Positions 1,854 through 63,448 are shown, numbered from the stretch's first letter. The stretch is 64,000 bases of DNA from Candidatus Doudnabacteria bacterium (GCA_028286905.1 JAQBQP010000002.1:56971-120970); one strand, 5' to 3'. Numbers and translations: made by a program. Notes: generated by a model from the letters alone, not told the origin.

Positions 1854-1863
1854 ACTAAGACGA

Positions 1864-1893
1864 AAGGCCCGACTGCGTAAGCGGTCGGGCCTT
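1864..1893. terminator. Bidirectional terminator hairpin (GGCCCGAC...GTCGGGCC)
   Basis: Perfect 8-bp GC-rich stem between convergent ORFs, T-run on + side. Confidence 0.55.
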
Positions 1894-1928
1894 ATTCTTT
1901 AATAGGCAATGGCATTCCTCCTGGGAAG

Positions 1929-2291
1929 TTAGTAGCGAACTTTCTGATTTTCGTAGAACTGTAGCAGCTCTTGGTTTGCCGGAGTCGCAATCTGCTTGAT
2001 GAACTGATTGTAGGTTCGCTCCGCTAGCAGACAGATCGGAACGGCGAAGCATAGCTCAGCCTGCCGCTTGTGCTTCCGAAAAATCCGGAAGGTTGGAAGA
2101 TGATTGTGGTTTTTATCCACAAAAACCATGACCTGCGAATCAGCGAACACTTCCAGCAGTCTGGCCCCTTCTTGTTCGCAGATCGGCTGAGCGTTTTGGC
2201 TCCAAAGCTGACGCACCAACGCCATCCGTTTGATGTAGGGAAGCACCTCTGGTTGGATCCGTTCAAGTTTCGACATTTGCCTTACCGACAA
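1929..2291 (-). CDS. Hypothetical protein in a G+C-rich segment
   Basis: 120-aa ORF; the local sequence is visibly more GC-rich than the flanks; a 75-aa ORF on the opposite strand overlaps, so the coding strand is uncertain. Confidence 0.35.
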   Translation of the reverse strand: MSVRQMSKLERIQPEVLPYIKRMALVRQLWSQNAQPICEQEGARLLEVFADSQVMVFVDKNHNHLPTFRIFRKHKRQAELCFAVPICLLAERTYNQFIKQIATPANQELLQFYENQKVRY

Positions 2292-2422
2292 AGGTGAGTG
2301 CTAAAGAACTATCAAAAACTACCTAGGCTAGAATAGCATAATATACCTTGATAAACCAGGGTTTTTAGCAGCCGCGCGGCATTGATTTATCAAGGCAATA
2401 TTGGTAAAATAAAGCGTAATTT

Positions 2423-32401: not shown

Positions 32402-32899
32402 ATGACTAATAAAAATATTGGTTTAAGTGTAGTAACAGTTTTAGTAATTGCAGCAATTGGTTTTTTTGGCGGGATGAAATATGGATCTGCACATGCCTTG
32501 TCTGCAAAATCTCTGGCTAGCTTAAGCACTGCTCAAAAACAGTTGCTAACTCAAAATCTTCGCGGTGGTGGGATGGCTGGTAATGCTGGAGCTGGTGGAG
32601 CAATGGGCTTTGCGGGGCGCAGAACCGGAACAGGTGGGGCCGCTGGCTCAGGGTTTACAGCAGGAAATATAATTAGCAAAGATGATAAAAGTATAACCGT
32701 TTCCACAACTGGCGGTGGTTCAAAAATAATTTTTGTTTCTGGTACTACTAAGGTTGGTAAAAGCGTAACCGGTGCAGTTTCCGATTTGGCAGTAGGCGAC
32801 CAGGTAACCATTACCGGTGCCGCAAATTCAGACGGCAGTATTAACGCAGCATCAGTAGATATTCGCCCTGCTAACACTGTTCCATCAACAGGTAAATAA
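32402..32899 (+). CDS. Secreted Gly/Ala-rich hypothetical protein
   Basis: Signal/TM N-terminus; GGGMAGNAGAGGAMGFAG low-complexity stretch. Confidence 0.45.
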   Translation: MTNKNIGLSVVTVLVIAAIGFFGGMKYGSAHALSAKSLASLSTAQKQLLTQNLRGGGMAGNAGAGGAMGFAGRRTGTGGAAGSGFTAGNIISKDDKSITVSTTGGGSKIIFVSGTTKVGKSVTGAVSDLAVGDQVTITGAANSDGSINAASVDIRPANTVPSTGK

Positions 32900-32985: not shown

Positions 32986-33795
32986 ATGAATAATCAGGAA
33001 CTCGGAGCGTCTGTGGAATGGTTGTACGGCTTAGGGTTATCAGTCAAAGAGATTCGTAAAATTTTGGCAGAATTACCTGGGCTAAAAAAGGTCTCGATAA
33101 CGGCGGTGCGAGAGCATCTAGCTGACGAGTTCGGTAGCCAGAAACACTTTCCAAATCGCCCTAGAACGGCGGAACTGAGCTATGCGCGAGTGTTCGGGGA
33201 ATATGCGGCTACGATTGGTGCTGCCGATCATGTTTCGCCGTTGGTACCCTGGCAATTTCGTAGGCTGATGCTTCTGAGGTATTTGGTTCCGGATGGTGAC
33301 GAAGTTTTAACCGGCGCCGGAATGTTGAAGACGTTGGTGTACGATCCGCCGTATCCGCCGGGCTATCTCAGTCTGTTGAGTGCAGTGTTCCAAGCCAATT
33401 ATGGGTTGGAATTTTCCTCAGACCGGATCACAGGGCCATACGTACATGCAGTTATCGAAGGCGGTATCGCGACACCGAAAAACTATCAGGAATTTCTGAT
33501 CAGTGCGCTGCAACATGCCGCGGAACAGATTCGGCTTAATCCTCCGAGGTGGCCGCCACTGAAGCAGGTAGACAATGCGATTTCTCGTACGCCGATGATG
33601 CCTGCGGAGCGGAAAGCGCTTCGATATTATTACGGGATCCAGGGAAAATCGGCAAAAAGCGAAGACGAGATCGCGGAGCTGATTCAAAGACCTGCGAGCC
33701 AGGTACGAGAATATGTTAAGAAAGCAGTCGCTCATCTCAGTGAGACTGGGGGAGCGCTTGGATTGTTGCTGTACCAACACCTGTCTGTGCTTTAG
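32986..33795 (+). CDS. Hypothetical regulator with C-terminal sigma-70 region-4-like HTH, in a G+C-rich island
   Basis: C-terminal ERKALRYYYGIQGKSAKSEDEIAELIQRPASQVREYVKKAV resembles sigma region 4; composition is visibly more GC-rich than the flanks. Confidence 0.5.
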   Translation: MNNQELGASVEWLYGLGLSVKEIRKILAELPGLKKVSITAVREHLADEFGSQKHFPNRPRTAELSYARVFGEYAATIGAADHVSPLVPWQFRRLMLLRYLVPDGDEVLTGAGMLKTLVYDPPYPPGYLSLLSAVFQANYGLEFSSDRITGPYVHAVIEGGIATPKNYQEFLISALQHAAEQIRLNPPRWPPLKQVDNAISRTPMMPAERKALRYYYGIQGKSAKSEDEIAELIQRPASQVREYVKKAVAHLSETGGALGLLLYQHLSVL

Positions 33796-36820: not shown

Positions 36821-37489
36821 ATGAAAATTTTGTTGATTGAAGATAATCAAAAGTTGGCCGAATCAATTAAGCGCGGTTTAGAGCCGGATGGTTATTCGGT
36901 AGACATTGTTGGGGACGGTCTGGTGGGCCAACAACGTTTAGAGGCGCATAAGGATTTGTATGATCTGGTTATTTTAGACTTGATGCTTCCAGGGAAAACC
37001 GGTACGCAGGTCTGTGTCGCTTGGCGCGATCAAAATATTGTCGTTCCGATCTTAATGCTTACGGCCAGGGACACTGTAGAGGACAAGGTGCTTGGTTTGG
37101 ACAGCGGAGCAGATGACTACTTGGTAAAACCCTTTGACTTTGCGGAGCTGATTGCTAGGATCAGGGCGTTGCTACGCAGGCCAACAGTGCTTGTTGATGA
37201 GAATATTGTAGTAGGACCGTTATCATTAAGAACAAGTCAAAAACAAATTTTTCTTAATGATAAAGCTTTAGAACTGACGCTACGCGAATATGCAGTTTTA
37301 GAATATTGCATGCGACATCCTAAGCAAGTTTTAGGCAGAGATCAAATCTTATCGAGTGCTTGGGATTATTCCTTTGATTCATTTAGTAATGTTGTTGACG
37401 TGCATATTAAGAATTTAAGAAAAAAATTAGGAACTTATGGGAAAACCCTTCAGACCGTTCGAGGGCTCGGCTACCGCTTGGCACTCTGA
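36821..37489 (+). CDS. Response regulator, OmpR family (receiver plus winged-helix)
   Basis: MKILLIEDN, D52 in VILDLMLPG, C-terminal GYRLA. Confidence 0.85.
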   Translation: MKILLIEDNQKLAESIKRGLEPDGYSVDIVGDGLVGQQRLEAHKDLYDLVILDLMLPGKTGTQVCVAWRDQNIVVPILMLTARDTVEDKVLGLDSGADDYLVKPFDFAELIARIRALLRRPTVLVDENIVVGPLSLRTSQKQIFLNDKALELTLREYAVLEYCMRHPKQVLGRDQILSSAWDYSFDSFSNVVDVHIKNLRKKLGTYGKTLQTVRGLGYRLAL

Positions 37490-38456
37490 CCCATTTTTTA
37501 GAGCAAGAATAAAACTTACCGCTTGGTACGTTGGTTTTATTGTTTTAATATTGGCTTCGTTCAGCGGGGCTTTATTCACGAGTTTTAATGCCAATGTTCG
37601 TCGAAAGCCAGTACATATAGATCAAGAACTTTCTCGGGAAGAGATCCGCAATCAATTCGCGGACGATGCTGCTAGTAGCTTATTATTATCGCTACTTATA
37701 ATTGATGGAATAATTTTTGTTGTTTCCGCCGCAGCAAGTTATACCTTTGCCGGATACACCCTACGTCCATTGCAAAAAACGATGGCAGCGCAAAAGAGGT
37801 TTGTCGCAAATGCGTCACACGAATTGCGCACGCCTTTAGCCGTAATGCAGACTGATATTGAAGTGCTAACCCGTCAAGACCAAACTCTTTCTGAACAAGC
37901 GAAGCGAACTTTAGCCAGCGCAATGCAAGAATTAAAAGTTATGAAAGACTTAAGCAATCAGATGCTTAGTTTGTCGAAAGCCGAAAATTCTATAATTTCT
38001 TCAAATAAAACGGAGTTTGACCTAGCTGTTCTTTTAGAAGAGGTGTATTCCCGGATGAAACCGTTAGCCGAAAAGAAAAAAATTGAGATGCAAATAGAAA
38101 GCACCCGAGTTTCGATAATTCATGCTGATCAAAATCATATTGATCATGTTATTTCAAACTTAATCGACAATGCCATTAAGTATACTAAAATCGGTGGCAA
38201 AATAATGATTAGCTTAACGAAAGATAAAAATAATGCAGTCTTACAATTTAAGGATACGGGCATTGGAATTTCCGAGAAAGACTTGCCGCATATTTTTGAA
38301 AGTTTTTATAAATCTGACCAATCTCACTCAAGCGAAGGAGCTGGCCTTGGTTTATCTATCGTAAAAACTTTGGTGACAAATAATGGTGGAGAAATAGTTT
38401 TAGAAAGCAAAGTTGGCGAAGGAACAAATTTAACAGTTAAATTCTTATTGCTTTAA
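37437..38456 (+). CDS. Sensor histidine kinase (HisKA plus HATPase_c)
   Basis: H-box ASHELRTPL; N, G1, G2 boxes (DNAIKYT, DTGIGI, GLGLSIV); start overlaps the response-regulator gene end, so the start codon is uncertain. Confidence 0.78.
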   Translation: MGKPFRPFEGSATAWHSDPFFRARIKLTAWYVGFIVLILASFSGALFTSFNANVRRKPVHIDQELSREEIRNQFADDAASSLLLSLLIIDGIIFVVSAAASYTFAGYTLRPLQKTMAAQKRFVANASHELRTPLAVMQTDIEVLTRQDQTLSEQAKRTLASAMQELKVMKDLSNQMLSLSKAENSIISSNKTEFDLAVLLEEVYSRMKPLAEKKKIEMQIESTRVSIIHADQNHIDHVISNLIDNAIKYTKIGGKIMISLTKDKNNAVLQFKDTGIGISEKDLPHIFESFYKSDQSHSSEGAGLGLSIVKTLVTNNGGEIVLESKVGEGTNLTVKFLLL

Positions 38457-38825
38457 ATGGAGTTTGATCTTATCCACTAGCTGGCTTGGAGAAATATCTG
38501 ATTTGATAACGAAATCAACTGCCCCGAGGCGCATCGATTCAGATTTGTTCGCATCTTCGCTAAGATTTGAAAGAACGATAATCGGAATTTCTTTTAATTC
38601 TTTGTTTTGTTTGATATTTTTTAAAACCCCAAAACCATCCATTCCTGGCATCAATAAATCTAGCAAGATCATATCTGGATGGGTTCTTTGAATTTTTTCT
38701 ATTGCCTCTAAGCCGTTACTAGCGCTCTCTACTTCGTATCCGGCAAATTCTAACCCCTGATGATAGACTCCTACCAGTAACTCTTCGTCATCTACTATTA
38801 ACACTTTAAATTTTTTGTTTCGCAT
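38445..38825 (-). CDS. Single-domain response regulator (CheY-like receiver)
   Basis: KVLIVDDE, DLLMPGMDG, K in VLSNL. Confidence 0.8.
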   Translation of the reverse strand: MRNKKFKVLIVDDEELLVGVYHQGLEFAGYEVESASNGLEAIEKIQRTHPDMILLDLLMPGMDGFGVLKNIKQNKELKEIPIIVLSNLSEDANKSESMRLGAVDFVIKSDISPSQLVDKIKLHLKQ

Positions 38826-41099: not shown

Positions 41100-42092
41100 T
41101 TATTCGAAGTCCCACCATTTATCTATAGTCGGATCAGATTCCAACATAAACGCTGCACCAATCTTCGGTGTGATAATTTTATAATTGAATTTTTCAGCCG
41201 CGGCAATTAATCTTTTAGGCGGTTCATTCCAAGCATGAATAGACAATATGAATTTTGCCCAGTGCACTGGGATTAAAACTTTTGTTTGAAGATCGGCAGC
41301 GGCTTGTGCGGTTTGCTCTGGAAACATATGAATATATGGCCAGTTTTTGCCGTATTGTCCGCATTCAAGTAAAGCTAAATCAAATGGTCCGTACTTGCTG
41401 CCAACATTTTTAAATTGCTGGTCATATCCGGAATCGCCGCCAATAAAAATTTTAAACCGATCTAATTGTAAAACATAAGCGGACCACAGTGTTTTATTTC
41501 TGGTTAGAAATCTTCCTGAAAAATGCCTGGCTGGCACAGCGGTAAGATTAAAGCGAGGCTCTATTATAGTGCTTTCTTGCCAGCTTAATTCGGTTATTAT
41601 TTTTTTATTAAAACCCCAATAACGCAAATGTGAGCCTACTCCGGACGGGGTGATTATTTTACTAATTTTATTTTTTAAAAGGCCAATTGTTTTGTAGCTT
41701 AAATGATCGTAATGGTCATGGGTTAAAATCAATAGATCAATATTTGGAATTTCATCAGGCTGGTAAACATAGCTGGTAGCAAATGGTTTGCCAATAAATG
41801 AAACGGGCGAAGCCGGCCCAAATAAAACTGGGTCTACCATGATTGTAAACCCTTGATACTTAATTAAATAAGAAGAATGACCAAACCAGACGATTGTTGG
41901 TTTTTCGGCAGGCAGGTCGATTAGGTTGGTTTTTTCAGCTGGAAGTACTCGCGAAGGTTTAATTAGCTTGGATTTGTTTGCAAACTCGATAAGCATTCTA
42001 AGATAGGAAGTGTCTTCGAGCATCATTTCTGTTGGTTCAATATTCTTGAACGGCTTGCCAGCTGGATTTTTACCGAATGTTTTAAATAGCAT
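41100..42092 (-). CDS. MBL-fold metallo-hydrolase
   Basis: LILTHDHYDHL (HxHxDH) and downstream His/Asp ligands. Confidence 0.7.
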   Translation of the reverse strand: MLFKTFGKNPAGKPFKNIEPTEMMLEDTSYLRMLIEFANKSKLIKPSRVLPAEKTNLIDLPAEKPTIVWFGHSSYLIKYQGFTIMVDPVLFGPASPVSFIGKPFATSYVYQPDEIPNIDLLILTHDHYDHLSYKTIGLLKNKISKIITPSGVGSHLRYWGFNKKIITELSWQESTIIEPRFNLTAVPARHFSGRFLTRNKTLWSAYVLQLDRFKIFIGGDSGYDQQFKNVGSKYGPFDLALLECGQYGKNWPYIHMFPEQTAQAAADLQTKVLIPVHWAKFILSIHAWNEPPKRLIAAAEKFNYKIITPKIGAAFMLESDPTIDKWWDFE

Positions 42093-42208
42093 ATTTTGAG
42101 CATACCAATTTTATTGAAAATAAAAAAGGTGCTAGAATTACCAAACTGATCGACACTTCCTACAATGGAGGCTGCAATGCAGCATTTACTACGGCCTCTG
42201 CGGAAGAG

Positions 42209-43231
42209 GTGGTTACAATGAACATCGCGATTGGCCTGGCGTGCTTAGCGATGTCTATGACCTTGTTCGTGTTGGTCTGTAAGGCGCGCAAACTGCTGTT
42301 GTTCGCCTGGATCTATTTGGCTTTTGGTGTGTTTATATTTGGGGCAGGGATACATTTTGTCCTGATCTCCGCCAATTCCAAATGGAATCTGCAATGGCTT
42401 TCGATAACGGTAGACCTAATGACGATGCTGGCAGCAGTGGCTATCGCCTTAGTTTTCCCGGCTGTTTTGCCAAAGGTGATCAAAATCCTTGGCGAAGCGC
42501 ATCTTTCCTTGGAAAGGAAAGTTGCTTTGGAGGCTGCAAGAAAGGCGGCTCGGCAAAAAACTGATTTCATGGCGATGATGTCCCACGAACTCAGAACGCC
42601 TTTGAACAGCATCGTCGGCTTTTGTTCTTTGATCGAAGATCAGCACTATGGGCCGGTCACCGAAGAGCAACGGATCGCGTTAGTGCGGATAAAGGATAGC
42701 TCCAGCCACTTAGTGAAGCTGGTCAGACAGATTCTTGACTACAATGGTCAGGAGCGAGCTGACTGGGAAGAGGTGGAGCTTGTGACTTTTTGCAAAACAG
42801 TCCTGGCAATGTTTGATCCGTTGCTTGGCAAGTACACTGTGTGTCTCGAGGTGGAGCTGCCCGAGGTGCCTTACCAGGTTTGGACTGATACGAAAAAACT
42901 TCGGCAGGTTATCACCAATCTGCTGCAGAATGCTTTCAAGTTCACCGAGCATGGCTCCGTTGGGTTTAGGGTCAGTTGTGTGGACGGGTTGGTATCGATT
43001 GAGGTCAGCGATACCGGAATCGGAATCAGTAAGGAAAATCTTGCCAAAATTTTTGATCCGTTTTGGCAAGTCGATAGGAGGAACATGCGCGCTGAAGCTG
43101 GCGCAGGGCTGGGACTAAGCATTACCCAACGCTTTGTGGAAATTCTTCAAGGCGATATCAAGGCACAAAGTGTGCTCGGAAAGGGTACGAAGTTCACAGT
43201 TCTTCTACCTCAAGCGCCGGATAAGGCTTGA
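42209..43231 (+). CDS. Orphan sensor histidine kinase with 4-TM N-terminal sensor, in a G+C-rich island
   Basis: H-box MSHELRTPLNSI; N/G boxes (QNAFKFT, DTGIGIS, GAGLGLSI); composition conspicuously GC-rich; may start at the internal Met (MNIAIG). Confidence 0.75.
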   Translation: MVTMNIAIGLACLAMSMTLFVLVCKARKLLLFAWIYLAFGVFIFGAGIHFVLISANSKWNLQWLSITVDLMTMLAAVAIALVFPAVLPKVIKILGEAHLSLERKVALEAARKAARQKTDFMAMMSHELRTPLNSIVGFCSLIEDQHYGPVTEEQRIALVRIKDSSSHLVKLVRQILDYNGQERADWEEVELVTFCKTVLAMFDPLLGKYTVCLEVELPEVPYQVWTDTKKLRQVITNLLQNAFKFTEHGSVGFRVSCVDGLVSIEVSDTGIGISKENLAKIFDPFWQVDRRNMRAEAGAGLGLSITQRFVEILQGDIKAQSVLGKGTKFTVLLPQAPDKA

Positions 43232-43295
43232 GGTAGGCAGTACAACAAAGGGCGCTCTTTCACGAGAGCGCCCTTCTTGTTACAATATTAGCAAT

Positions 43296-44165
43296 ATGAA
43301 CTCAGAAAAAATAAAAAATTATTATCGCCTTGCAAAGCCGGGAATTATTTACGGCAATGCTTTAACCGCAGCAGCAGGATTTATACTTGCTTCAAAGTAT
43401 CCGGTAAATCCAAAACTTTTTCTTTTAACTTTAATTGGGATATCTTTTGTTATTGGTGGTGGCTGCGTTTTTAATAATTACTTGGATCGTTCGATTGATT
43501 CAAAAATGGAACGTACTAAGCGTCGAGTTTTGGTGAGCGGCGTTATCTCTGGACGGAGTTCATTAATTTATGGAACGATTTTAGAACTGATAGGAATGTT
43601 AATCTTAGCGCTACACACCAATCTTTTAACTTTTGGTTTGGCAATAGTTGGTTTTATTTTTTATGTTTTCATTTACACTTTCGCCAAGCGGTATACAGTT
43701 TACAGTACAATTATTGGTAGTGTCTCCGGATCGATTCCACCGCTGGTCGGCTATTGTGCGGTATCGAACCGAATTGATTTAGGTGCTGTAATATTATTTT
43801 TGACGATCTGTTTTTGGCAAATGCCACATTTTTACGCAATTTCAATTTATAGAGTAGAGGATTATCGAAGCGCAGGGTTGCCAGTCTTGTCAGTCCAAAA
43901 AGGTACGAACACAGCAAAAAAACACATTCCATTTTATATATTAGCTTACCTAGTTAGTGCCAGTTTACTAGTTTTTTACCATTATACCGGGTTGGTTTAT
44001 TTAGTTTTAGTTATGATATCTGGACTCGTTTGGTTAGCGTATTCTTTAAAAGGCTTCAGATCTGGAGTCAGCGAAGAATCTTGGGCAAAAAAAGTATTCG
44101 GTCTTTCTTTGGTAGTGATAATGCTTTTTTGCTTGGCAATTCCAATAGATAAATTTTTTAGATAG
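43296..44165 (+). CDS. cyoE: Protoheme IX farnesyltransferase (heme O synthase)
   Basis: UbiA-family motif NYLDRSIDSKMERTKRR and ~8 TM; start moved to the internal Met to avoid overlap with the histidine kinase. Confidence 0.8.
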   Translation: MNSEKIKNYYRLAKPGIIYGNALTAAAGFILASKYPVNPKLFLLTLIGISFVIGGGCVFNNYLDRSIDSKMERTKRRVLVSGVISGRSSLIYGTILELIGMLILALHTNLLTFGLAIVGFIFYVFIYTFAKRYTVYSTIIGSVSGSIPPLVGYCAVSNRIDLGAVILFLTICFWQMPHFYAISIYRVEDYRSAGLPVLSVQKGTNTAKKHIPFYILAYLVSASLLVFYHYTGLVYLVLVMISGLVWLAYSLKGFRSGVSEESWAKKVFGLSLVVIMLFCLAIPIDKFFR

Positions 44166-44166
44166 A

Positions 44167-46560
44167 TTATTGATCTAGATTTTTTAAAACTTTTTTTAAA
44201 TCAATTCCTTTACCCAAGACTGGTTTCCAAAGATCACCTTTTTTTGCTAAACGCGCAAAAATGTTTTTAACGTTAAAGTTTTTAGGATCAAGGCCCTTTT
44301 TAACCTCTTTCCATTCCAAAGGAGTGGACACTGGCGCACCCGGTCGCGGCCTAACGCTATAGGCCGCTGCTAAGGTTTGGCCTTTGCGGTTTTGCAAAAA
44401 ATCTAAATATATTTGTTTCTTTCGTTTGCTCGGGCTGCGTACTAAGCTGGTAGTTTTAGGTAATTTTTTTTGCACAATTGTGGCAACAATTTCAGCAAAT
44501 TGTTTTGTTTGATCGTAATTGTATTTTGCTGCCAAAGGAATAAAGATGTGCAATCCTGTTGCTCCGGAAGTTTTGCAGTAAGAGGCTGCCCCGGCTTTCT
44601 CCAAAACTTTGTGGATGGTTTGCGCCGCTTCAATAACTTTATCGAAAGAAATATCGCCCGGATCTAGGTCGATTACGGCATAGTCCGGATTCTCAAGGTT
44701 TTTTAGTCTTGAACTCCAAGGATTAATTTCAATACAACCGAGATTGGCCATATATAAAAGAGTTTTTTGATCTTGGCAAACTAAATAATTAATATTTTTC
44801 TGGTTTGATTCAGAAAAGACTTCTACAGTTTCAATCCAGTTGGGCAGTGAATGTCCAACATCTTTTTGGAAAAAACTCTGGCCATCAATGCCATTCGGAT
44901 GTCGGTTCATTGATTCTGGGCGATCTTTGAGATAGGGCAGAATATACGGAGATATTTTTCGATAATAATTTATCAGGTCTCCTTTGGTATATTTTTCTTT
45001 TGGCCAAAAGATTTTATCCAAATGTGTGAATTCAGAAGGTCTTTCGTTTTTCGGCGAAACTTTTTTTATGGGCTCAATTTGTTCTTTGATAACACTTTCT
45101 TGATTCTTATCTTTGCGAAGTCCTAAAAAAATTGGCTGGCGCATCGTGCCTTGATCAGTCCATTCTTGAAAAACTACTTCGCATACCAATTCAGGCTTGA
45201 CCCAGGTAGCGGGAGCATTGGTCTTTGGCGGAACTTTAAAGGGGGATTTAGAAATTTTTAAAAGATCCATTTTTGCTTTTAGCGCTTTGATTGCTTTATC
45301 ATCAAACCCACCGCCAGTATGCCCGATATAGCGCAAATTGTTTTTTTGATGCAAACCTAAAATTAATGCTCCAAAACCTTTGCGTCCACCACGCGGCGCA
45401 GTATACCCGCAAATAATTGCTTCTTGGCGCATATGTGTTTTTATCTTCAGCCATTCAGCGCTTCTTTTGCCGCTGCGGTATGGGCTGTCCGCTTTTTTCG
45501 CGATAATTCCTTCTAACTGAGCTTTTTTCGCCAGAACAAAAAGTTTTTTACCTTCGCCAATCGTATGCTCGGAAAATTTTAATACTTTACTTTTAGGAAC
45601 CAAGTTTTTTAAAAGCGCTTTTCGTTTTATTAAGGGCAGCTCCCGCAAATCCTTTCCATCTAAATATAAAAGATCAAAAACGTAATATACTAAGGTGCTT
45701 TTTTTGATTTGATAATCTTGTAATAATTGAAAACTGGGTTTGCCAGAACTGTCTAAAGCAACAACCTCTCCATCTAATATCGCGTTAACTTTTAATTTTT
45801 CTAACTCTTTAACGACCGGAGAGAACTGCGCATTAAAAGTATTATCATTGCGAGAATATAATCGTACTTTTTTATCTTGTATCTCGGCAATTGCCCGATA
45901 ACCATCCCATTTGTTTTCGTAAATCCAATCATTGTCATCAAAAGGCTGGTCGGTTAGTTTTGCGAGCATCGGTTGAACGCTTTGAGGCATCGGTACCTTA
46001 ACAGAAGCTGCTACTTTAGGTGTTTTTGTAGCGGAGCTGTTGTTAACGGCAAATTGATCATCCGCTTTTACTAATAGCCAAGCGTTTTCTTTTGCTGATT
46101 TTTGGGCTTTAATTTTTATTAAAGCAAATTCTCCTTTGAGTTTTTCTCCAAATATTACAAAGGTTATATGCCCTTTGTGTAAGCCAGCTTTAATTAGCTT
46201 CTCACTTTGTTTGCGTTCAGCGGTTTGGACCGAACTGTAAAAGCCTTTGTCCCAAATTGAAACGTGTCCTGCGCCATAATTGCCTTTAGGGATGTCTCCT
46301 TCAAAACCGCCATAGCTAATTGGATGGTCTTCAACCATCATTGCTAAGCGTTTGTCGCCCGGATTCATAGAAGGGCCTTTCGGCACGGCCCAGCTTAGTA
46401 AAACACCTTCTAACTCTAATCGAAAGTCGTAATGTAAATGTGAAGCGTGATGCTCTTGAACTACAAAGCTTAAAGGCTTGCTTTTCCCGGCAGGCAATTT
46501 TTTGCCTTTTGGTTCAGGAGTGGTATTAAACTTTCTTTTTTTATTATATTTTTCTAACAT
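44167..46560 (-). CDS. ligD: Multidomain ATP-dependent DNA ligase LigD (phosphoesterase, ligase, polymerase domains)
   Basis: PE domain HASHLHYDFRLE; ligase KxDG in ENKWDGYR; C-terminal LigD polymerase/primase domain. Confidence 0.85.
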   Translation of the reverse strand: MLEKYNKKRKFNTTPEPKGKKLPAGKSKPLSFVVQEHHASHLHYDFRLELEGVLLSWAVPKGPSMNPGDKRLAMMVEDHPISYGGFEGDIPKGNYGAGHVSIWDKGFYSSVQTAERKQSEKLIKAGLHKGHITFVIFGEKLKGEFALIKIKAQKSAKENAWLLVKADDQFAVNNSSATKTPKVAASVKVPMPQSVQPMLAKLTDQPFDDNDWIYENKWDGYRAIAEIQDKKVRLYSRNDNTFNAQFSPVVKELEKLKVNAILDGEVVALDSSGKPSFQLLQDYQIKKSTLVYYVFDLLYLDGKDLRELPLIKRKALLKNLVPKSKVLKFSEHTIGEGKKLFVLAKKAQLEGIIAKKADSPYRSGKRSAEWLKIKTHMRQEAIICGYTAPRGGRKGFGALILGLHQKNNLRYIGHTGGGFDDKAIKALKAKMDLLKISKSPFKVPPKTNAPATWVKPELVCEVVFQEWTDQGTMRQPIFLGLRKDKNQESVIKEQIEPIKKVSPKNERPSEFTHLDKIFWPKEKYTKGDLINYYRKISPYILPYLKDRPESMNRHPNGIDGQSFFQKDVGHSLPNWIETVEVFSESNQKNINYLVCQDQKTLLYMANLGCIEINPWSSRLKNLENPDYAVIDLDPGDISFDKVIEAAQTIHKVLEKAGAASYCKTSGATGLHIFIPLAAKYNYDQTKQFAEIVATIVQKKLPKTTSLVRSPSKRKKQIYLDFLQNRKGQTLAAAYSVRPRPGAPVSTPLEWKEVKKGLDPKNFNVKNIFARLAKKGDLWKPVLGKGIDLKKVLKNLDQ

Positions 46561-46563
46561 AAA

Positions 46564-47391
46564 TTAAGCATGTTGCTTTTCTTTTTCTAAGCTCGCTTGA
46601 AGCGCGGCCATTAAATCTGCAACATTGGTATTTTTAGGAGCAGCGCCTTTTTTATGAATTGGTTTGCCTTTGGCTTTTTCTTCGATAATTTCTTTTAATT
46701 CCTCGGTATAAGTGTCGTGGTAGTCCTGAGGTTTAAAAGTTTCAGTCAAATGATTAATCAATGCTAAGGCAACATCTAATTCTTTGGCGGAGCGAGCCGT
46801 TACTTTTAAAGCAGGTTTATTTTTGCTTTTACTTTTCGTAGTTGCAGTGGACGCTCCTGGAATGTTTAAATCGCCTGGGTCGCGAATTTCATCTTCAAAA
46901 CGCAGTTGGTTTAAAACCAAAACATTTTTCATCGGTTTAATTACAGCCAAGTGCTCCTTATTTCTGATAACAAATTTTGCCACGCCAACTTTTTTGGATT
47001 TTGCAATCGCATCCCGTAAAAGCGCATACGGTCTTTCGGCTCCTTTTTCTGGTTCAAGATAGTAAGGCTTTTGATAAAAAATTGTATCTATTTCAGTTTC
47101 TTCGGTGAAATCGACGATATCTATTGTTTTAGTTTTTCTGGCATTAGCTTTTTTAAAATCCTCATCATCTAGAACAATGTAATCACCCTTTTCGTACTGA
47201 TAACCTTTAACAATATCTTCGTAAGGAATTTCGCGGCCATCAGAACGGCAAACTCGAGCGTAGCGCACTGGCTGCAAATCTTTTTTATGCAGCAAGTTAA
47301 ATTTTAACTCGTGCTCATTTGTGGCGCTATAAAGTTTAACTGGGATGTTAACCAATCCAAAACTAAGTGCGCCGGACCATAATGCTCTCAT
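46564..47391 (-). CDS. ku: Ku protein (NHEJ DNA end-binding)
   Basis: N-terminal MRALWSGALSFGLVNIPVKLYSAT is canonical bacterial Ku. Confidence 0.85.
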   Translation of the reverse strand: MRALWSGALSFGLVNIPVKLYSATNEHELKFNLLHKKDLQPVRYARVCRSDGREIPYEDIVKGYQYEKGDYIVLDDEDFKKANARKTKTIDIVDFTEETEIDTIFYQKPYYLEPEKGAERPYALLRDAIAKSKKVGVAKFVIRNKEHLAVIKPMKNVLVLNQLRFEDEIRDPGDLNIPGASTATTKSKSKNKPALKVTARSAKELDVALALINHLTETFKPQDYHDTYTEELKEIIEEKAKGKPIHKKGAAPKNTNVADLMAALQASLEKEKQHA

Positions 47392-50669: not shown

Positions 50670-51581
50670 ATGATAAGAAATAAAAACAAAGTAATTTTTT
50701 TCACGGCGGTTGTTGTTGTTGATCTATTGTTTTTACTTTGGCTTGCTAGTATTTTAAATTTTTTACCGCATTTGAATTTTGCTCTATTAAACCCCAAAGG
50801 AACTATTGCTCAGCAGGAAAAGAATGTGATCATAACAGCCTTCTTACTGATGTTAATAGTGGTAGTACCTGTTTTAGGGGCGGCTTTGTATGTTGCCAGG
50901 AAATATCGAGCGGACAACACAGAAAATACCGATTACCAGCCAGAATGGGAAGGTGACTTAAAATTACAGATAGTTTGGTGGGTGTTTCCAACAATTATTA
51001 TTATTTGCTTGAGTGTGTTAACGTGGAAGAGTAGCCATGCTGTCGATCCTTTCAAGGCGATTAATTCCCCTAATAAGCCGATCACAATCGAAGTGGTGGC
51101 ATTAAATTGGAAGTGGCTATTTATTTATCCTGAGCAAAATATTGCTACGGTAAATTATGTTGAATTTCCTCAGAATGTTCCGATAAACTTTATCCTTACT
51201 TCCGATGCCCCGATGAATTCATTTTGGATTCCTCAGTTGGGCGGACAAATGTATGCCATGGCAGGGATGCAAACGCAATTACATTTAATGGCAAATGAAC
51301 AAGGTGAATACGATGGTTCCGCAGCAGAAATAAATGGGCCAGGATTTGCAGGGATGCGCTTTAAAGCCAAAGCGACAACTGTTGCTGATTTCCAACAATG
51401 GATTGGATCGGTTCATCAATCAGAAACTAAATTAGACTCAGAAACCTACGCAAAGCTTGCTCAGCCAAGCACAGAAAATGCTCAGGCATATTATGCCGCA
51501 GTGGTTCCAAATTTGTTCGATACGATAATGAAGAATTATATGGCGCCAAATATGAATAATATGCAAATGGATACTAAATAA
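50670..51581 (+). CDS. cyoA: Cytochrome o ubiquinol oxidase subunit II
   Basis: C-terminal domain colinear with CyoA: TSDAPMNSFWIPQLGGQMYAMAGMQTQLHLMANEQGEYDGSAAEINGPGFAGMRFKA; no CuA Cys ligands. Confidence 0.85.
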   Translation: MIRNKNKVIFFTAVVVVDLLFLLWLASILNFLPHLNFALLNPKGTIAQQEKNVIITAFLLMLIVVVPVLGAALYVARKYRADNTENTDYQPEWEGDLKLQIVWWVFPTIIIICLSVLTWKSSHAVDPFKAINSPNKPITIEVVALNWKWLFIYPEQNIATVNYVEFPQNVPINFILTSDAPMNSFWIPQLGGQMYAMAGMQTQLHLMANEQGEYDGSAAEINGPGFAGMRFKAKATTVADFQQWIGSVHQSETKLDSETYAKLAQPSTENAQAYYAAVVPNLFDTIMKNYMAPNMNNMQMDTK

Positions 51582-53549
51582 ATGAGCTTACTTTTCGGAA
51601 GATTAACTTTAGCAGATTTGCCGCACGAATGGTTTACAGTCGGCGGAACCGCGACGATTCTTTTAGGATTGTTAGGCATTGCCGCGCTATTAACTTATTA
51701 CAAGCGTTGGAAGTGGCTTTGGCAAGAATGGTTCACCTCTACTGATCCCAAAAAAATTGGAATTATGTATATTCTTTTTGCAGCGGTGATGTTATTCCGT
51801 GGCGCTTTGGATGCCGCGATGATTTGGGCCCAACAAGCGATGTCAGTAGGTTCGAACCATGGCTATTTAACTCCTGCACATTTTCAGCAAATTTTTACTG
51901 CGCATGGTGACATTATGGTTTTCTTCGTCACAATGGGTTTTTTGTCCGGATTACTTAACTTATTAATTCCGCTCCAAATTGGCGCGCGGGATTTAGCCTA
52001 TCCGTTCTTAAATACTTTGGCTTTCTGGCTTTATGTCGCAGGCGCAATCTTTATAAATTTATTTTTCGTTTTTGGCGGAAACTTTGCCGCTACCGGCTGG
52101 CTGTCTTTGCCGCCATTGTCTGGGTTAGCGTATAGCCCAGGGGTGGGAGTGGATTACTGGATATGGAGTTTGCAAATATCCGGCGTAGGAAGCTTAATTG
52201 CAGGTATTAATTTTATTGTAACAATCCTGAAAATGCGCGCACCGGGCATGACCTTAATGAAGATGCCACTATTTGTTTGGACTTCTTTATGCAGCATGAT
52301 TATGGTAGTTTCGATTTTTCCAATTCTTGCAGCAACTCTTGGAATGCTTTGGTTGGATCGCTATTTCGGCCTGCATTTTTTCACTTCAGATTTTGGCGGC
52401 AACCCGATGATGTATATTAATCTTATTTGGATGTGGGGTCATCCAGAAGTGTATGTTTTGATTTTGCCATCGTTCGGAATTTATTCAGAAGTTGTGGCTA
52501 CCTTTTCACAAAAGAAACTTTTCGGCTACAAATCCTTGGTTGGCGGAGCACTTGGCATTACGGCTTTATCATTCTTAGTTTGGGCGCATCATTTTTTCAC
52601 GATGGGAGCGGGCGCCAATGTAAATGCATTTTTTGGGATTATGACCGGATTTATTGCATTGCCAACCGGGGTGCAGATTTTTAATTGGATCTCCACTATG
52701 TATAAAGGCAGAATTATTTACTCGCAGCCAATGCATTGGTTCTTTGGCTTCTTAGCTACCTTTACCTTTGGCGGTATGGCCGGGCTACTAATGTCTTCAC
52801 CAGCAGCGGACTACGCTTTGCATAATACTTTATTTTTAGTAGCGCATTTTCACACGATGATTATTGGCGGAGCGTTATTTGGAATTTTTGCCGGAATAGT
52901 TTATTGGTTTCCAAAATTTACCGGATTTAAGCTTGATGAGCGTTGGGGCAGGCGTGCGTTTTGGTTCTGGCTAGTTGGATTTTTCCTGTCTTTCGCTCCT
53001 CTATATATGTTAGGTTTTTTGGGTGCGACCCGAAGACTAGACCATTACGATGCTTCAATGGGTTGGCAAGGTTTGTTTATCGTTTCTGCGGTTGGCATTA
53101 CCGTAATTGGAGTTGGTGCTTTGTGCCAAGTAATTCAAATTATAGTTAGCGTTAAAAACAGAAAGCAGAACTTGGATTTAACAGGCGATCCTTGGAACGG
53201 CAGAACTTTAGAATGGGCCACATCTTCGCCGCCACCTGTTTATAACTTCGCAGTAATTCCTACTGTTCAAACACGCGATGCATTTTGGGAACAGAAGCAA
53301 TCTAAAACAATTACCAAACCAGTATACGAAGATATTGTTTTGCCTCGAAATACCGCGATGGGAATGTACGTTTCAGCGTTTGTGTTTTTGGCCGGCTTCG
53401 GGCTAGTTTGGCATATTACTTGGTTAATATTCTTTGGATTAATCGGAACCGTTGTTTGTATTGTTATGCGTGCGCTTGATCAAAATACCGAATATATAAT
53501 CCCTGCAGTGGAAGTAGAACGAATGGAGCAAGTATGGAAAAAGAATTAG
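51582..53549 (+). CDS. cyoB: Cytochrome o ubiquinol oxidase subunit I
   Basis: Heme-copper oxidase subunit I fold; ~15 TM; conserved His ligands (WAHHFF, HFHTMIIGG). Confidence 0.9.
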   Translation: MSLLFGRLTLADLPHEWFTVGGTATILLGLLGIAALLTYYKRWKWLWQEWFTSTDPKKIGIMYILFAAVMLFRGALDAAMIWAQQAMSVGSNHGYLTPAHFQQIFTAHGDIMVFFVTMGFLSGLLNLLIPLQIGARDLAYPFLNTLAFWLYVAGAIFINLFFVFGGNFAATGWLSLPPLSGLAYSPGVGVDYWIWSLQISGVGSLIAGINFIVTILKMRAPGMTLMKMPLFVWTSLCSMIMVVSIFPILAATLGMLWLDRYFGLHFFTSDFGGNPMMYINLIWMWGHPEVYVLILPSFGIYSEVVATFSQKKLFGYKSLVGGALGITALSFLVWAHHFFTMGAGANVNAFFGIMTGFIALPTGVQIFNWISTMYKGRIIYSQPMHWFFGFLATFTFGGMAGLLMSSPAADYALHNTLFLVAHFHTMIIGGALFGIFAGIVYWFPKFTGFKLDERWGRRAFWFWLVGFFLSFAPLYMLGFLGATRRLDHYDASMGWQGLFIVSAVGITVIGVGALCQVIQIIVSVKNRKQNLDLTGDPWNGRTLEWATSSPPPVYNFAVIPTVQTRDAFWEQKQSKTITKPVYEDIVLPRNTAMGMYVSAFVFLAGFGLVWHITWLIFFGLIGTVVCIVMRALDQNTEYIIPAVEVERMEQVWKKN

Positions 53550-54136
53550 AAAACTTAGCGTTGAAAAATTTTGAAATCGAAAAAGCAGAGAAAGACCATT
53601 TCGGCTTCTGGGTTTATTTAATGACCGATTTATTGTCTTTTGCCGCGGTCTTTGCTGCTTTTGCAGTTTTGAGAAATAACACTTTTGGCGGACCGTCTGG
53701 GAGAGAGTTGTTTAGTTTGCCATTCGTATTAATTGAAACTTTTATCTTGTTAACCAGCAGTTTTACTTGCGGATTGGCAATGTTAGCAGCACAGGACGGC
53801 GATAAGAAAAAAGTTATTACTTGGTTTTCCACAACATTTATATTAGGCGCCTCATTTTTAGTAATGGAATTTACAGAATTTCATAAGCTAATTGTTGAAG
53901 GTAATGGCCCGCAGCGCAGCGGATTCTTAACCAGCTTCTTCGCACTTGTCGGTTTGCATGGGCTGCATATTTTTATTGGATTACTTTGGATGTTTATTGC
54001 AATGGTTATGACCCAAAAGAGAGGTTTAACTATTAAAAGCAAGAGCAATCTAACCCGCTTAAGTTTATTTTGGCATTTTTTGGATATCGTTTGGATTTTT
54101 ATTTTTACTATTGTCTATCTAATGGGGGTTATGTAA
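53534..54136 (+). CDS. cyoC: Cytochrome o ubiquinol oxidase subunit III
   Basis: 5-TM subunit III-like; position in operon. Confidence 0.8.
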   Translation: MEKELENLALKNFEIEKAEKDHFGFWVYLMTDLLSFAAVFAAFAVLRNNTFGGPSGRELFSLPFVLIETFILLTSSFTCGLAMLAAQDGDKKKVITWFSTTFILGASFLVMEFTEFHKLIVEGNGPQRSGFLTSFFALVGLHGLHIFIGLLWMFIAMVMTQKRGLTIKSKSNLTRLSLFWHFLDIVWIFIFTIVYLMGVM

Positions 54137-54137
54137 T

Positions 54138-54488
54138 ATGCAAACTCATAAAGCCTATATAACCGGATTTTTCATTTCAATCGTACTAACGTTGGCAGCA
54201 TTTGTGCCGGTAATTATTAATGCCCAATCAAATTTTAAAACTTTCTCGCACAACGCTTTAATTGCTTATGTTTTGGTCCTGGCATTTATTCAGCTTTGTG
54301 CGCAGTTAACTTTATTCTTGCACCTTGGACGCGAACAAAAACCCCACTGGAATTTATCGGTCTTCATGGCAACAATTGGTCTAGTTTTTATAGTAGTCGT
54401 TGGTTCGCTTTGGATTATGGCGCATTTGAATTACAACATGACCCCAGATCAGATAAATACTTATATTAAAAACTCAGACGCTTTCTAA
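54138..54488 (+). CDS. cyoD: Cytochrome o ubiquinol oxidase subunit IV
   Basis: 3-TM small subunit immediately after cyoC. Confidence 0.7.
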   Translation: MQTHKAYITGFFISIVLTLAAFVPVIINAQSNFKTFSHNALIAYVLVLAFIQLCAQLTLFLHLGREQKPHWNLSVFMATIGLVFIVVVGSLWIMAHLNYNMTPDQINTYIKNSDAF

Positions 54489-60003: not shown

Positions 60004-60453
60004 ATGAAACTCTATTCCCGTAGAGACTCTACACCAGATCTGTTGCACAAATTAGTTCACGCAATGGACCGTTCGGCGGATGTAATACTCCAAAAACAAT
60101 TCGGTATTACCTACAAGCGCGCCTATTTCTTACTCGTCCTTCAGAGGGTCGGAACAGTGACTCAGCATCAGTTAGCGGTTGTACTGGGGTATAGCGCTGC
60201 TTCGGTGAGTACGATGCTAACCGCGCTTTCAAAATTAGGATACGTTGATATTCAGCCAAGCCCACACCATGGGCGGAAAAAGCTGGTGTCTCTCACTCCG
60301 TACGGCAAGGAACTGGTTACGAAAGGCCGAAATATGCTTAATGCACACTTCGCTAGTCTTATGCTCGGTGAGCACATGAATATCCAAGAATATTATGCCC
60401 AGACAGAGCGGTTATACTCAGCCGTAGTTGCAAAAAATAAGGAGCAAAAATGA
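60004..60453 (+). CDS. MarR-family transcriptional regulator
   Basis: Winged HTH (QHQLAVVLGYSAASVSTMLTALSKLGYV). Confidence 0.75.
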   Translation: MKLYSRRDSTPDLLHKLVHAMDRSADVILQKQFGITYKRAYFLLVLQRVGTVTQHQLAVVLGYSAASVSTMLTALSKLGYVDIQPSPHHGRKKLVSLTPYGKELVTKGRNMLNAHFASLMLGEHMNIQEYYAQTERLYSAVVAKNKEQK

Positions 60454-61286
60454 CTCAGAGCTTTGAACAAAATAGCTTCGTGTCATTCGATGGAACGAGT
60501 CTATCATACGAAAAGATTGGAGCTGGCCCAGCTGTAATAGTTGTTCCCGGCGCACTTGAAGAAACTGAAAACTTTCGAGGTTTTGCAGAAGAGTTGTCAC
60601 ACTTATTTACCGTTCATACTCTTGATCGCCGCGGCCACGGGAAAAGTGACCCACAGGGTGAAGGCTACTCAATTAATAAGGAATGCCAAGATATCCGTAC
60701 CTTGCAAGATCTCACAAAGGCAAAGTACCTTTTTGCCCATAGTTTTGGCGGATTTGCAGTTCTCGAGACAGCACGGAACAACCCAGAACTTATGGGAGTT
60801 GCTGTTTATGAACCCGGCATTTCAATTGATGGTTCAATCAATGTCAGATGGGTCGATCGGTGTCTCACTGAGATTGCTGCCGGTAAACTACACGATGCGT
60901 TTACCACATTTGCCCAAGGGGTTAACCCTCGGTCGGCCCTGATGCCACGATGGATCTTTAAGCGAGTTTTACGTCTTGCGTTGAAGCCAGCCGAACTAGC
61001 CCAAAAGTATCGTTTGCTCGCAACAGCTATTCCTGAGCATCTCGAAGAAGCCCGTTTGAACAACACTTATCAGAATTATCAGGAAATTAACGCACCAGTA
61101 CTACTGATGCGGGGGACTGGCGGTGTAATGTCTAAGCCAGCACTGGCGAAGCTAGCTTCTGCGATAACCAACGTTAAGGTTACGGAGTTCAAAGGTCTTG
61201 ATCACTTTGGGCCGGAACAAAAACCCAAAATTGTGGCCAATGTTGTGGCGAATTTCTTCGCGCAGGCTGGGCGAAAGTTTTTGTAA
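60450..61286 (+). CDS. Alpha/beta hydrolase
   Basis: HSFGG nucleophile elbow; overlaps the MarR stop, suggesting an operon. Confidence 0.75.
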   Translation: MTQSFEQNSFVSFDGTSLSYEKIGAGPAVIVVPGALEETENFRGFAEELSHLFTVHTLDRRGHGKSDPQGEGYSINKECQDIRTLQDLTKAKYLFAHSFGGFAVLETARNNPELMGVAVYEPGISIDGSINVRWVDRCLTEIAAGKLHDAFTTFAQGVNPRSALMPRWIFKRVLRLALKPAELAQKYRLLATAIPEHLEEARLNNTYQNYQEINAPVLLMRGTGGVMSKPALAKLASAITNVKVTEFKGLDHFGPEQKPKIVANVVANFFAQAGRKFL

Positions 61287-62796: not shown

Positions 62797-63336
62797 CACG
62801 TATCCCTAAATTTCTCTAAGGGGTGGACTATATCATCATCCCACTTTTACTGGGATGCGAGGCGCTTCGGCCGATCTTCATCGGACTACTCCTTGCGGAT
62901 AGTCTCTGAACCTTCCCCAATTATAAGTCGGGGCTTGGCTGCTGATTGCCCCGAAGGGTTTCCAGCAATTCACCTCGTTTTTCCATCCTCAATTACTTGA
63001 AGAGGCTGCAATTAGACCGGCATGTATTTCTTTGTAACAGTTTGAGCAAATTAGAACGCATTTTTCTAACTCTTTTCGTGTTCTTTCCCACGATCGAGTC
63101 AGTCCACTAAGCGCAATTCCAAATTCTTTGGTTTTACGATCCAAGTGGTGAAATTCTAAAGCTGCTAGACATCTATCGTAGCACAGAGCTTGCACTTGCC
63201 GCCTTTTAAAGCGACGGCCATGGCTTTGATTTTCTTACGTCTCTTATCTACTGCCAGTTTGATATACTCTTTTCGGTCTGAATATTTTCTTTGTTCTTTC
63301 ATACTTTGATAGTATCAAAGAATTAGATGGTATTAC
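62797..63336 (-). mobile_element. Group I intron (self-splicing-type) inserted in the tRNA anticodon loop
   Basis: P7 strands ...GGTTCAGAGACTA... and ...TATAGTCCACC...; P9-like hairpin CCCTTAGAGAAATTTAGGG followed by ATACG (omega-G) directly before the 3' exon; internal HNH ORF; boundaries +/- 2 nt. Confidence 0.7.
62989..63301 (-). pseudogene. Intron-encoded HNH homing endonuclease, split by a frameshift (ATG at 63301; C-terminal part in another frame ending 62989)
   Basis: Frame 1: MKEQRKYSDRKEYIKLAVDKRRKKIKAMAVALKGGKCKLCATIDV*; frame +2 continues ...ALCYDRCLAALEFHHLDRKTKEFG...CVLICSNCYKEIH with HNH motifs (HH..D, CxxC...H). Confidence 0.6.
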
Positions 63337-63419
63337 AGTCGATTGCTCTACCACTGAGCTACTCCCGAATATTCTGTTTTGAACCATAGAATCGGCCTAT
63401 TTGGCCGAAACTACTCGAA

Positions 63420-63448
63420 TATTATTGCATTTCTTTTTGCTTAAGTCA
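63420..63448 (-). promoter_or_regulatory. Candidate sigma70 promoter for the intron-containing tRNA (-35 TTGACT, 17-nt spacer, -10 AATAAT)
   Basis: Read on the minus strand about 50 nt upstream of the tRNA 5' end. Confidence 0.3.

Follow-up and report, generated by a model that had tools for sequence, protein, structure and literature searches.

Histidine kinases with an ETR1_N sensor are already known in bacteria, as is the horizontal transfer of two-component kinases. Functional bacterial members of the ethylene-binding-domain family include SynEtr1 and AzoEtr1 (PMC11819568). The copper cofactor of this domain is coordinated by C65; D25, which is paired with K91, holds H69 in position (PMC11819568). 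Mutating either C65 or D25 abolishes ethylene binding in ETR1, and mutating the equivalent Cys does the same in SynEtr1 (PMC11819568). For the D25N substitution, a drop in affinity of about 100-fold is reported (PMC11971883). On the side of the host, soil Doudnabacteria, Saccharibacteria, and Parcubacteria carry a cyo ubiquinol-oxidase operon that has been proposed to be laterally acquired (PMC8407418).

Here we describe a histidine-kinase gene in a 64-kb stretch of a Candidatus Doudnabacteria genome (the whole stretch is called the window below), which also carries cyoABCD, cyoE, Ku, and LigD. Its twist is an ETR1_N sensor that lacks the Cys, is shortened at its N terminus, and sits in a CPR genome. 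Taken together, the data make it probable that this locus is a one-gene horizontal acquisition of an orphan HisKA kinase, whose ETR1_N sensor has been stripped of its copper and ethylene determinants. The features of the locus are listed in Table 1.

Table 1. Features of the kinase locus and of the nearby response-regulator cluster (positions counted from the first nucleotide of the window)
Feature	Position	Strand	Remarks
OmpR-type regulator	36821..37489		Native cluster
Kinase of the OmpR cluster	37437..38456		Native
Stand-alone receiver	38445..38825	-	Native composition, GC 0.365; Response_reg, 95.6 bits
MBL-fold hydrolase gene	41100..42092	-	Adjoins the kinase gene
Promoter-like site, TTACCA-17-TACAAT	42138..42166	+	Consensus match only; straddles the left compositional border
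Compositionally foreign segment	42150..43285	+	Kinase gene, about 59 nt on its 5' side, and the 3' hairpin; borders approximate
Histidine-kinase ORF	42209..43231	+	340 codons, intact; starts at GTG 42209
ETR1_N-type sensor, three TM helices	42212..42484	+	aa 2-92; Pfam PF25487; degenerate
HisKA (DHp) domain	42554..42742	+	aa 116-178; phospho-acceptor His126 in HELRTP; Pfam, 64.2 bits
HATPase_c catalytic domain	42887..43216	+	aa 227-336; N, G1, F, and G2 boxes intact; Pfam, 96.8 bits
Perfect 11-bp GC-rich hairpin, terminator-like	43248..43275	+	AAGGGCGCTCT / AGAGCGCCCTT, 6-nt loop, then CTTGTT; between the kinase gene and cyoE
cyoE (protoheme IX farnesyltransferase)	43296..44165	+	Native composition; exactly the deposited 289-aa protein; UbiA domain

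By Pfam, the protein encoded by the kinase ORF has the architecture ETR1_N + HisKA + HATPase_c. The likelier start appears to be ATG 42218, which would give a protein of 337 aa and follows a GAGG (42205-42208) at a distance of 9 nt, rather than the GTG that opens the frame. The deposited annotation is considerably shorter: a 270-aa protein named "pleC 2" that begins at Met71 and drops the first two TM helices together with the beginning of the third. Since the alignment to the family HMM starts at residue 2, the coding region must reach at least to 42212, and the 270-aa annotation is too short, being truncated at its 5' end. The reading frame given here corrects that database entry. Searching a contig index for an exact copy of the 270-aa protein gave no hit.

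The original prediction gave the sensor four TM helices. We find three: hydropathy shows three hydrophobic spans (approximately residues 4-25, 28-55, and 64-91), the AlphaFold2 model of the kinase (mean pLDDT, 87.6) has N-terminal helices at 2-22, 30-53, and 59-140, and the homologous ETR1_N domain is itself a three-helix bundle. With 38.0 bits and an E value of 2e-9, the match to PF25487 clears the cut-off of 27. When the sensor alone was used as query, a word-index search of proteins returned no matches. An exhaustive HMMER search with the same query gave 439 cluster representatives, the best of them 46% identical, and a profile search also recovers the ETR1_N family. Against a family HMM that we built from 154 representatives, the sensor scores 81.7 bits. 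The strongly conserved pattern of these representatives is PHGxCYLW before TM1, SDxLIGLSYxAIS in TM1, AFGxFIxACGxTHF in TM2, and VKLxTAxASVATA in TM3.

We then placed plant ETR1 on this family. The Arabidopsis ETR1 sequence used was compared with known allele positions, and its numbering reproduces C4, C6, D25, A31, Y32, I35, P36, I62, C65, H69, K91, and A102. Residues 14-125 of this sequence score 91.7 bits against the bacterial sensor-family HMM, so that the plant receptor fits the bacterial family better than does the kinase described here. In the alignment, D25, Y32, I35, I62, C65, H69, and K91 of ETR1 fall on conserved bacterial columns, which identifies the sensor family as the ethylene-binding-domain family. 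Membership of the kinase sensor in this family, as a degenerate representative, is its most informative feature and had been missed in the original prediction.

The same columns show how far this sensor has diverged. Where 152 of the 154 family representatives have the Cys equivalent to ETR1 C65, the kinase has Ala. The D25 column (Asp in 143/154) is occupied by Asn, the Y32 column (Tyr in 148/154) by Cys, the I35 column (Ile in 150/154) by Met, and the K91 column (Lys in 137/154) by Asp. The T68 residue, Thr in 149 of the 154, is deleted; this lies just before His69 and so shifts the register of that His in the helix. His69 itself, invariant in all 154 representatives, is kept. Wang et al. 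in 2006 reportedly found Tyr32, Ile35, Pro36, and Ile62 to be further residues of helices 1 and 2 required for ethylene binding; the corresponding residues of the kinase are C, M, S, and I, Ser being also the usual residue of the bacterial family in the Pro36 column. Thus, I62 and H69 are the only two of the seven ETR1 binding residues that this sensor retains. The HGxCYLW segment before TM1, whose His is found in 134/154 and whose Cys is found in 129/154 representatives, is absent. An in-frame upstream string, YNGGCNAAF, was considered as a possible remnant of this segment and dropped, as the family HMM gives no alignment in any frame upstream of the kinase ORF.

Identity comparisons give the same picture. 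Among the 51 family members with the direct sensor-to-DHp architecture, mean pairwise identity is 58% in the sensor and 40% in the kinase part. The protein described here is 37% identical to these members in the sensor and 34% in the kinase part; its sensor identity lies below that of every family member, making it the most divergent sensor of the family. From these substitutions, the sensor has probably lost the ability to bind Cu(I) and ethylene. It most likely serves as a membrane anchor and dimerization module, or else would sense something other than ethylene.

The catalytic part of the protein is well preserved. In an alignment with homologues, H126 to P131 is invariant, as are N237, N241, D268, G270, G272, G298, G300, and G302. 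A Foldseek search of the model against the PDB matched the kinase cores of HK853, WalK, and ZraS with E values of 1e-17 to 1e-18, and TM-scores to solved cores reached 0.78 over the target. The matches of this search were to the kinase core. Among those of low rank, one (BceS) extended along the full length with 17% identity, and the PDB matches included no solved structure of an ETR1_N sensor. NCBIfam gave generic kinase-core matches, all of them far under the cut-offs. By these sequence and fold comparisons, the protein is predicted to be a class I (HisKA) membrane-anchored histidine kinase with an intact core, and dimerization, autophosphorylation, and transfer of phosphate to a receiver, or its removal from one, are probably retained. 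No HAMP, PAS, or GAF domain lies between the TM bundle and the DHp domain. TM3 and DHp helix 1 instead form one unbroken helix in the AlphaFold2 model (residues 59-140), which couples the sensor bundle directly to the catalytic core.

The kinase gene is compositionally foreign. Its GC content is 0.494 compared with 0.393 for the whole window, and just 0.5% of 1,023-nt windows are as GC-rich. The original prediction had described it as conspicuously GC-rich next to the MBL-hydrolase and cyoE genes, and this is borne out: the flanking genes have GC contents of 0.38 and 0.36, respectively. The four shadow ORFs of 83 to 119 aa that we find within the kinase gene likewise agree with its description as rich in overlapping frames. 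We compared GC3 across 64 non-overlapping ORFs in the window. The kinase, at 0.575, ranks at the top of these, with a gene median of 0.34 and a robust standard deviation of 0.03 (z of about 7.7). GC2 (0.367) is at the host level and GC1 is only slightly raised, so the anomaly is a synonymous one.

Codon usage points the same way. The Karlin codon bias of the kinase relative to the other genes in the window is 0.497. Encoding the same amino acid sequence with host codons is expected to give 0.247 ± 0.030 (maximum, 0.358 in 1,000 resamplings), and the observed value is about 8 standard deviations above this expectation. The kinase favors CTG, GTG, ATC, CCG, and AAG, whereas the host favors TTA, GTT, ATT, CCA, and AAA. 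The dinucleotide signature of the gene lies at a distance of 121 from the host, versus 71 ± 24 (P of about 0.02). The proposal that composition along this region is non-uniform therefore holds for GC3, for codon usage, and for the borders, which are sharp.

These borders enclose little more than the gene. GC content is 0.26 in 42093-42149, 0.525 in 42150-42208, 0.49 in the kinase ORF, and 0.52 in 43232-43285. The left border is thus a step from 26% to 52% near 42150, and the host level is reached again past about 43285. Within the gene, GC3 is even, at 0.60 in the sensor, 0.61 in the DHp domain, and 0.54 in the catalytic domain (CA). This evenness suggests that the gene was acquired in one piece and that the divergence of the sensor was not driven by the AT bias of the host. 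Because GC3 in the sensor is as high as in the rest of the gene, we infer that its divergence arose mostly in the donor lineage, before the gene came under AT-biased mutation pressure in the host.

The flanks of the segment hold some further signals. The original prediction had the 3' end of the kinase gene overlapping a 5' extension of cyoE. Only the longest, TTG-started ORF (43134..44165) overlaps, and within it the UbiA domain does not begin until residue 77. The true start of cyoE is ATG 43296, past the hairpin, and the overlap is an artifact of ORF extension. The cyoE gene has a GC3 of 0.30. The hairpin between the two genes resembles a terminator; a consensus terminator scan did not call it because its T-run is short. 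The hexamer TACAAT occurs near either border, at 42161-42166 and 43281-43286. If the stretch that separates these copies were taken out, TTACCA-17-TACAAT would be followed after 9 nt by the ATG of cyoE. Such an arrangement would fit an insertion into the promoter of cyoE accompanied by a 6-bp duplication, which we offer only as an idea, since hexamers that are AT-rich and -10-like carry little weight as a signal.

The kinase gene had been grouped with two other GC-rich islands of the window as three foreign genes, possibly from one donor. One of these islands fits: the gene at 32986..33795 is a strong outlier, with a GC3 of 0.526. No family matches it above threshold, the nearest being sigma-70 region 4 at an E value of about 0.1. 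The stretch at 1860..2300, just upstream of a tRNA-Ser, is GC-rich, but neither a gene nor an RNA is supported there: it lacks a credible ORF and any Pfam match, and its two weak Rfam matches are at chance level, far under the gathering scores. A single donor is not supported, since the three islands do not cluster by pairwise distances in dinucleotides or codons. The dinucleotide delta* is 139 for HK-I2 and 63 for HK-I1, where I1 is the 1860..2300 stretch, and the host-host null is 112 ± 36.

We next consider where the segment may have come from. In a collection of 5.8 billion proteins, the best full-length homologues other than the deposited copy are 38 to 40% identical and have the same ETR1_N + HisKA + HATPase_c architecture. 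The closest of these lie on unlabelled metagenomic contigs of 74% and 69% GC, which fits a source of higher GC content. Even so, these nearest homologues are far from the kinase, with identities of 40% or less and contigs of 69 to 74% GC compared with 49% for the gene. Among named organisms, the sensor family occurs in Methylocella, Methylocapsa, and cyanobacteria. A canonical ETR1_N kinase fragment, P0312, is labelled "Patescibacteria group"; its 2.4-kb contig has a GC content of 58%, which makes the binning doubtful.

Mobile-element origin was also considered and set aside: blastn against 72,556 plasmids and 50,697 phage records gave no match to the segment, and within or beside it we found no integrase, transposase, tRNA, or flanking repeat longer than a single 6-mer. 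No close relative was recovered for a comparison of gene order. When GTDB species genomes were scanned with the MBL protein, the best match came from another Doudnabacteria MAG, at 65% identity. It is the sole labelled Doudnabacteria relative in which the MBL gene was found, and beyond that gene it has nothing in common with the window. Scanning metagenome contigs with cyoE gave 80 loci, all of them distant (56% identity or less), in which cyoE lies inside cyoABCDE, and none of the 80 shows an MBL-cyoE junction. Ten window proteins were looked up among 15 billion proteins. Each is identical, residue for residue, to a protein of one NCBI MAG labelled Candidatus Doudnabacteria, on a 540-kb contig with locus tags JWO40_*, and all ten are singletons at the 90% identity level; with the lineage so thinly sampled, native orthologues could go unseen. 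From the compositional evidence as a whole, we infer that the kinase segment was acquired by horizontal transfer.

The kinase had been called an orphan, with no regulator gene beside it. The immediate neighborhood agrees, its neighbors being the MBL-hydrolase gene and cyoE, but receivers are present 3.4 to 5.4 kb upstream. They belong to the native regulator cluster in Table 1 and to the stand-alone receiver that follows it. The latter may be the nearest unpaired candidate phospho-acceptor for the foreign kinase.

The sequence of events that we favor would be as follows. An AT-rich Candidatus Doudnabacteria (39% GC) would have acquired a one-gene segment of about 1.1 kb (approximately 42150-43285) whose donor had a GC content of about 50% or more, and the insertion point would have been the intergenic region that separates the divergent MBL-hydrolase and cyoE genes. 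In the resulting protein, the three-helix ETR1_N bundle feeds, via the continuous TM3-DHp helix, into the helix of the phospho-acceptor His. The kinase would autophosphorylate and exchange phosphate with a receiver encoded elsewhere. The sensor lacks the Cu-ligand Cys, Asp25, Tyr32, Ile35, and Lys91, the TM2 residue next to His, and the HGxCYLW segment, and with them most of the determinants of Cu(I)/ethylene binding in this family. The acquisition looks recent, and we slightly favor a kinase that is still functional over one that is decaying.

That it is foreign but decaying is a minor though real chance. The gene would then have arrived truncated at its 5' end, with a dead sensor and no partner, and would be a pseudogene-to-be whose open frame and intact kinase motifs reflect only a recent arrival. 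Such a history would fit the absence of the HGxCYLW segment, which about 90% of the family possess, as well as the upstream DNA of foreign composition (roughly 59 nt), which contains neither an in-frame start nor detectable family homology, the unusual divergence of the sensor, the lack of an adjacent regulator, and a GC3 still un-ameliorated, which suggests little time to decay. Against this, all 340 codons remain open and the catalytic motifs are all conserved. The GAGG, a good Shine-Dalgarno-like sequence, stands 9 nt before ATG 42218, accompanied by the promoter-like site and the terminator-like hairpin; the family HMM still gives the sensor 82 bits, and its three TM helices are clean. The match in GC3 between the sensor (0.60) and the rest of the gene also means that the divergence probably predates the transfer. 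A re-tooled pocket is a more doubtful proposition: Asn and Asp in place of Asp25 and Lys91, Ala in place of Cys65, the deletion before His69, and the loss of the cap might together create a site for another membrane-soluble or metal signal. If so, an ultra-small, symbiotic CPR organism may have kept the kinase as a new signalling input, for example via the stand-alone receiver.

Two other explanations seem to us very unlikely. One is that the kinase is native with an odd composition, or that assembly or binning has produced a chimera here. The failure to find a mobility signature or an empty site and the very poor sampling of the lineage leave some room for this. However, the anomaly resides in third positions and synonymous choice, at 8 standard deviations, and neither amino acid content nor selection on a low-abundance kinase can explain it; a chimera is at odds with the host-type sequence that resumes within about 100 nt of the segment in either direction on a contig of 540 kb, a pattern atypical of chimeric joins. 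The other, and the most improbable of all, is that the protein might be a working receptor for ethylene, or a Cu-dependent receptor for another small molecule, like SynEtr1 and AzoEtr1, with which a soil or rhizosphere CPR would sense plant ethylene. Its ETR1_N membership, the retention of His69 and Ile62, and a cyo oxidase operon resembling that of grassland-rhizosphere soil Doudnabacteria (PMC8407418) would suit this role. The residues themselves do not: the Cu-ligand Cys has become Ala, D25, Y32, I35, and K91 have all given way to other residues, and His69 lies one residue nearer, while single changes at C65 or D25 in ETR1, or at the equivalent Cys in SynEtr1, are enough to abolish binding (PMC11819568). 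The kinase is an ETR1_N family member, yet calling it an ethylene receptor is unwarranted. Should the degenerate sensor prove functional, it would be a natural ETR1-type bundle operating without the copper-binding Cys.

Set against known systems, the protein has familiar parts in an unusual state. It shares the three-helix PF25487 sensor, HisKA, and HATPase_c with the uncharacterized metagenomic kinases P0002 to P0004, with AzoEtr1 of Azospirillum brasilense, and with SynEtr1 of Synechocystis. As in P0002 and P0003, the sensor joins the DHp domain directly, without a GAF or PAS domain, and as in P0003 and P0004, no response regulator is adjacent; AzoEtr1, by contrast, has an adjacent response-regulator gene (PMC11819568). 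From these bacterial ETR1_N kinases it differs in its low identity (38 to 40%), in lacking HGxCYLW, and in the replacement or deletion of near-invariant residues. Arabidopsis ETR1 has a homologous TM sensor fold followed by a HisKA-type kinase, as here, but it adds GAF and receiver domains and has all seven ethylene-binding residues, of which this kinase has only I62 and H69. With HK853 of T. maritima, WalK/YycG, and ZraS, the kinase shares the DHp hairpin, the Bergerat-fold ATP domain, and the HExxT motif; the sensors of those proteins are periplasmic, PAS, or HAMP, and none is an ETR1_N bundle. Finally, like the cyo operon of soil CPR (PMC8407418), this gene is atypical for CPR and probably came from other bacteria. 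The cyo genes of the window are host-like in composition, so they are older or ameliorated arrivals, whereas the kinase, still compositionally foreign, suggests a later, independent arrival. It thus adds a clean, recent-looking single-gene case to the uptake of genes by soil CPR from other bacteria.

Next to the kinase gene, a compositionally foreign histidine-kinase ORF, cyoE is separated from cyoABCD by 6.5 kb that hold LigD, Ku, and other genes. Among the cyo loci recovered from metagenomes, roughly 30 carry cyoA-cyoB about 1 kb upstream of cyoE and in the same orientation. This placement is consistent with a cyoABCDE operon, the search having covered cyoA and cyoB beside cyoE. Directly adjoining the cyoE/kinase locus, a full three-domain LigD of 797 aa and Ku make up a pair for non-homologous end joining, here in a genome labeled CPR.

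Features in the window, with coordinates and strand
Feature	Position	Strand
23S rRNA gene, 3' end	1-464	
5S rRNA	648-763	
GC-rich stretch	1860-2300	
tRNA-Ser(GGA)	2423-2512	
ORF, high second-position GC (0.58)	17839-18960	-
ORF, high second-position GC (0.56)	32402-32899	+
Hypothetical protein, 269 aa	32986-33795	+
cyoE	43296-44165	
LigD and Ku	44167-47391	-
cyoABCD	50670-54488	
MarR-family regulator and alpha/beta hydrolase	60004-61286	+
Group I intron	62804-63110	-
68-aa ORF	62989-63195	-
Y-RNA-like match	63313-63437	

Composition singles out several other places in the window. The gene for the 269-aa hypothetical protein is the second strong GC3 outlier, at 0.526 (robust z of about 6). Its product is a database singleton that matches nothing in Pfam or NCBIfam, and a C-terminus resembling sigma-70 region 4 was seen only below threshold. 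The MarR-family regulator and the alpha/beta hydrolase, whose stop and start codons overlap, are mildly GC rich (GC3 of 0.48 and 0.42) and may be a further foreign pair, older or weaker. Two more ORFs have very high GC at the second codon position (z >3.5) with normal GC3; this is unusual amino acid composition, not foreign origin. A Pfam search with the shorter of these two found no match.

The GC-rich stretch near the window start (GC of about 51%) is located between a 313-aa ORF and the tRNA-Ser gene. It has no match in Pfam and just two weak ones, at chance level, in Rfam, and its ORFs are all short and overlap on both strands. By dinucleotide signature it is nearest to the kinase segment, at a distance (delta*) of 63 that is not significant. 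The stretch could be a foreign remnant adjoining a tRNA gene, or it could be an undescribed RNA. The longest DnaG ORF, starting from TTG 2455, overlaps the same tRNA, so the true DnaG start must be further downstream.

Near the other end of the window, Rfam identifies a group I intron (RF00028; 87.7 bits; E value of 5e-21) in surroundings poor in ORFs. It is overlapped by a 68-aa ORF in which, judged by eye, there are HNH-like Cys/His motifs. Neither ARAGORN, with introns allowed, nor Rfam found a host tRNA or rRNA gene around the intron. A weak Y-RNA-like match (E value of 0.002) lies nearby.

Outside the window, a canonical ETR1_N+HisKA fragment with every key residue kept adjoins ftsH on a 2.4-kb contig of 58% GC (DATJFT010000392.1, positions 1608 to 2365), deposited as "Patescibacteria group bacterium." Either this is a binning error, or the contig represents a second CPR carrier of the ETR1_N family of transmembrane sensors. 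In the alignment of bacterial family members (P0121 to P0269), a PHGxCYLW motif directly before TM1 is strongly conserved, with His present in 134 and Cys in 129 of the 154 representatives. It constitutes a second conserved His/Cys pair of the bacterial family, and we know of no description of it. Plant ETR1 differs in this respect, being without PHGxCYLW in the bacterial form.
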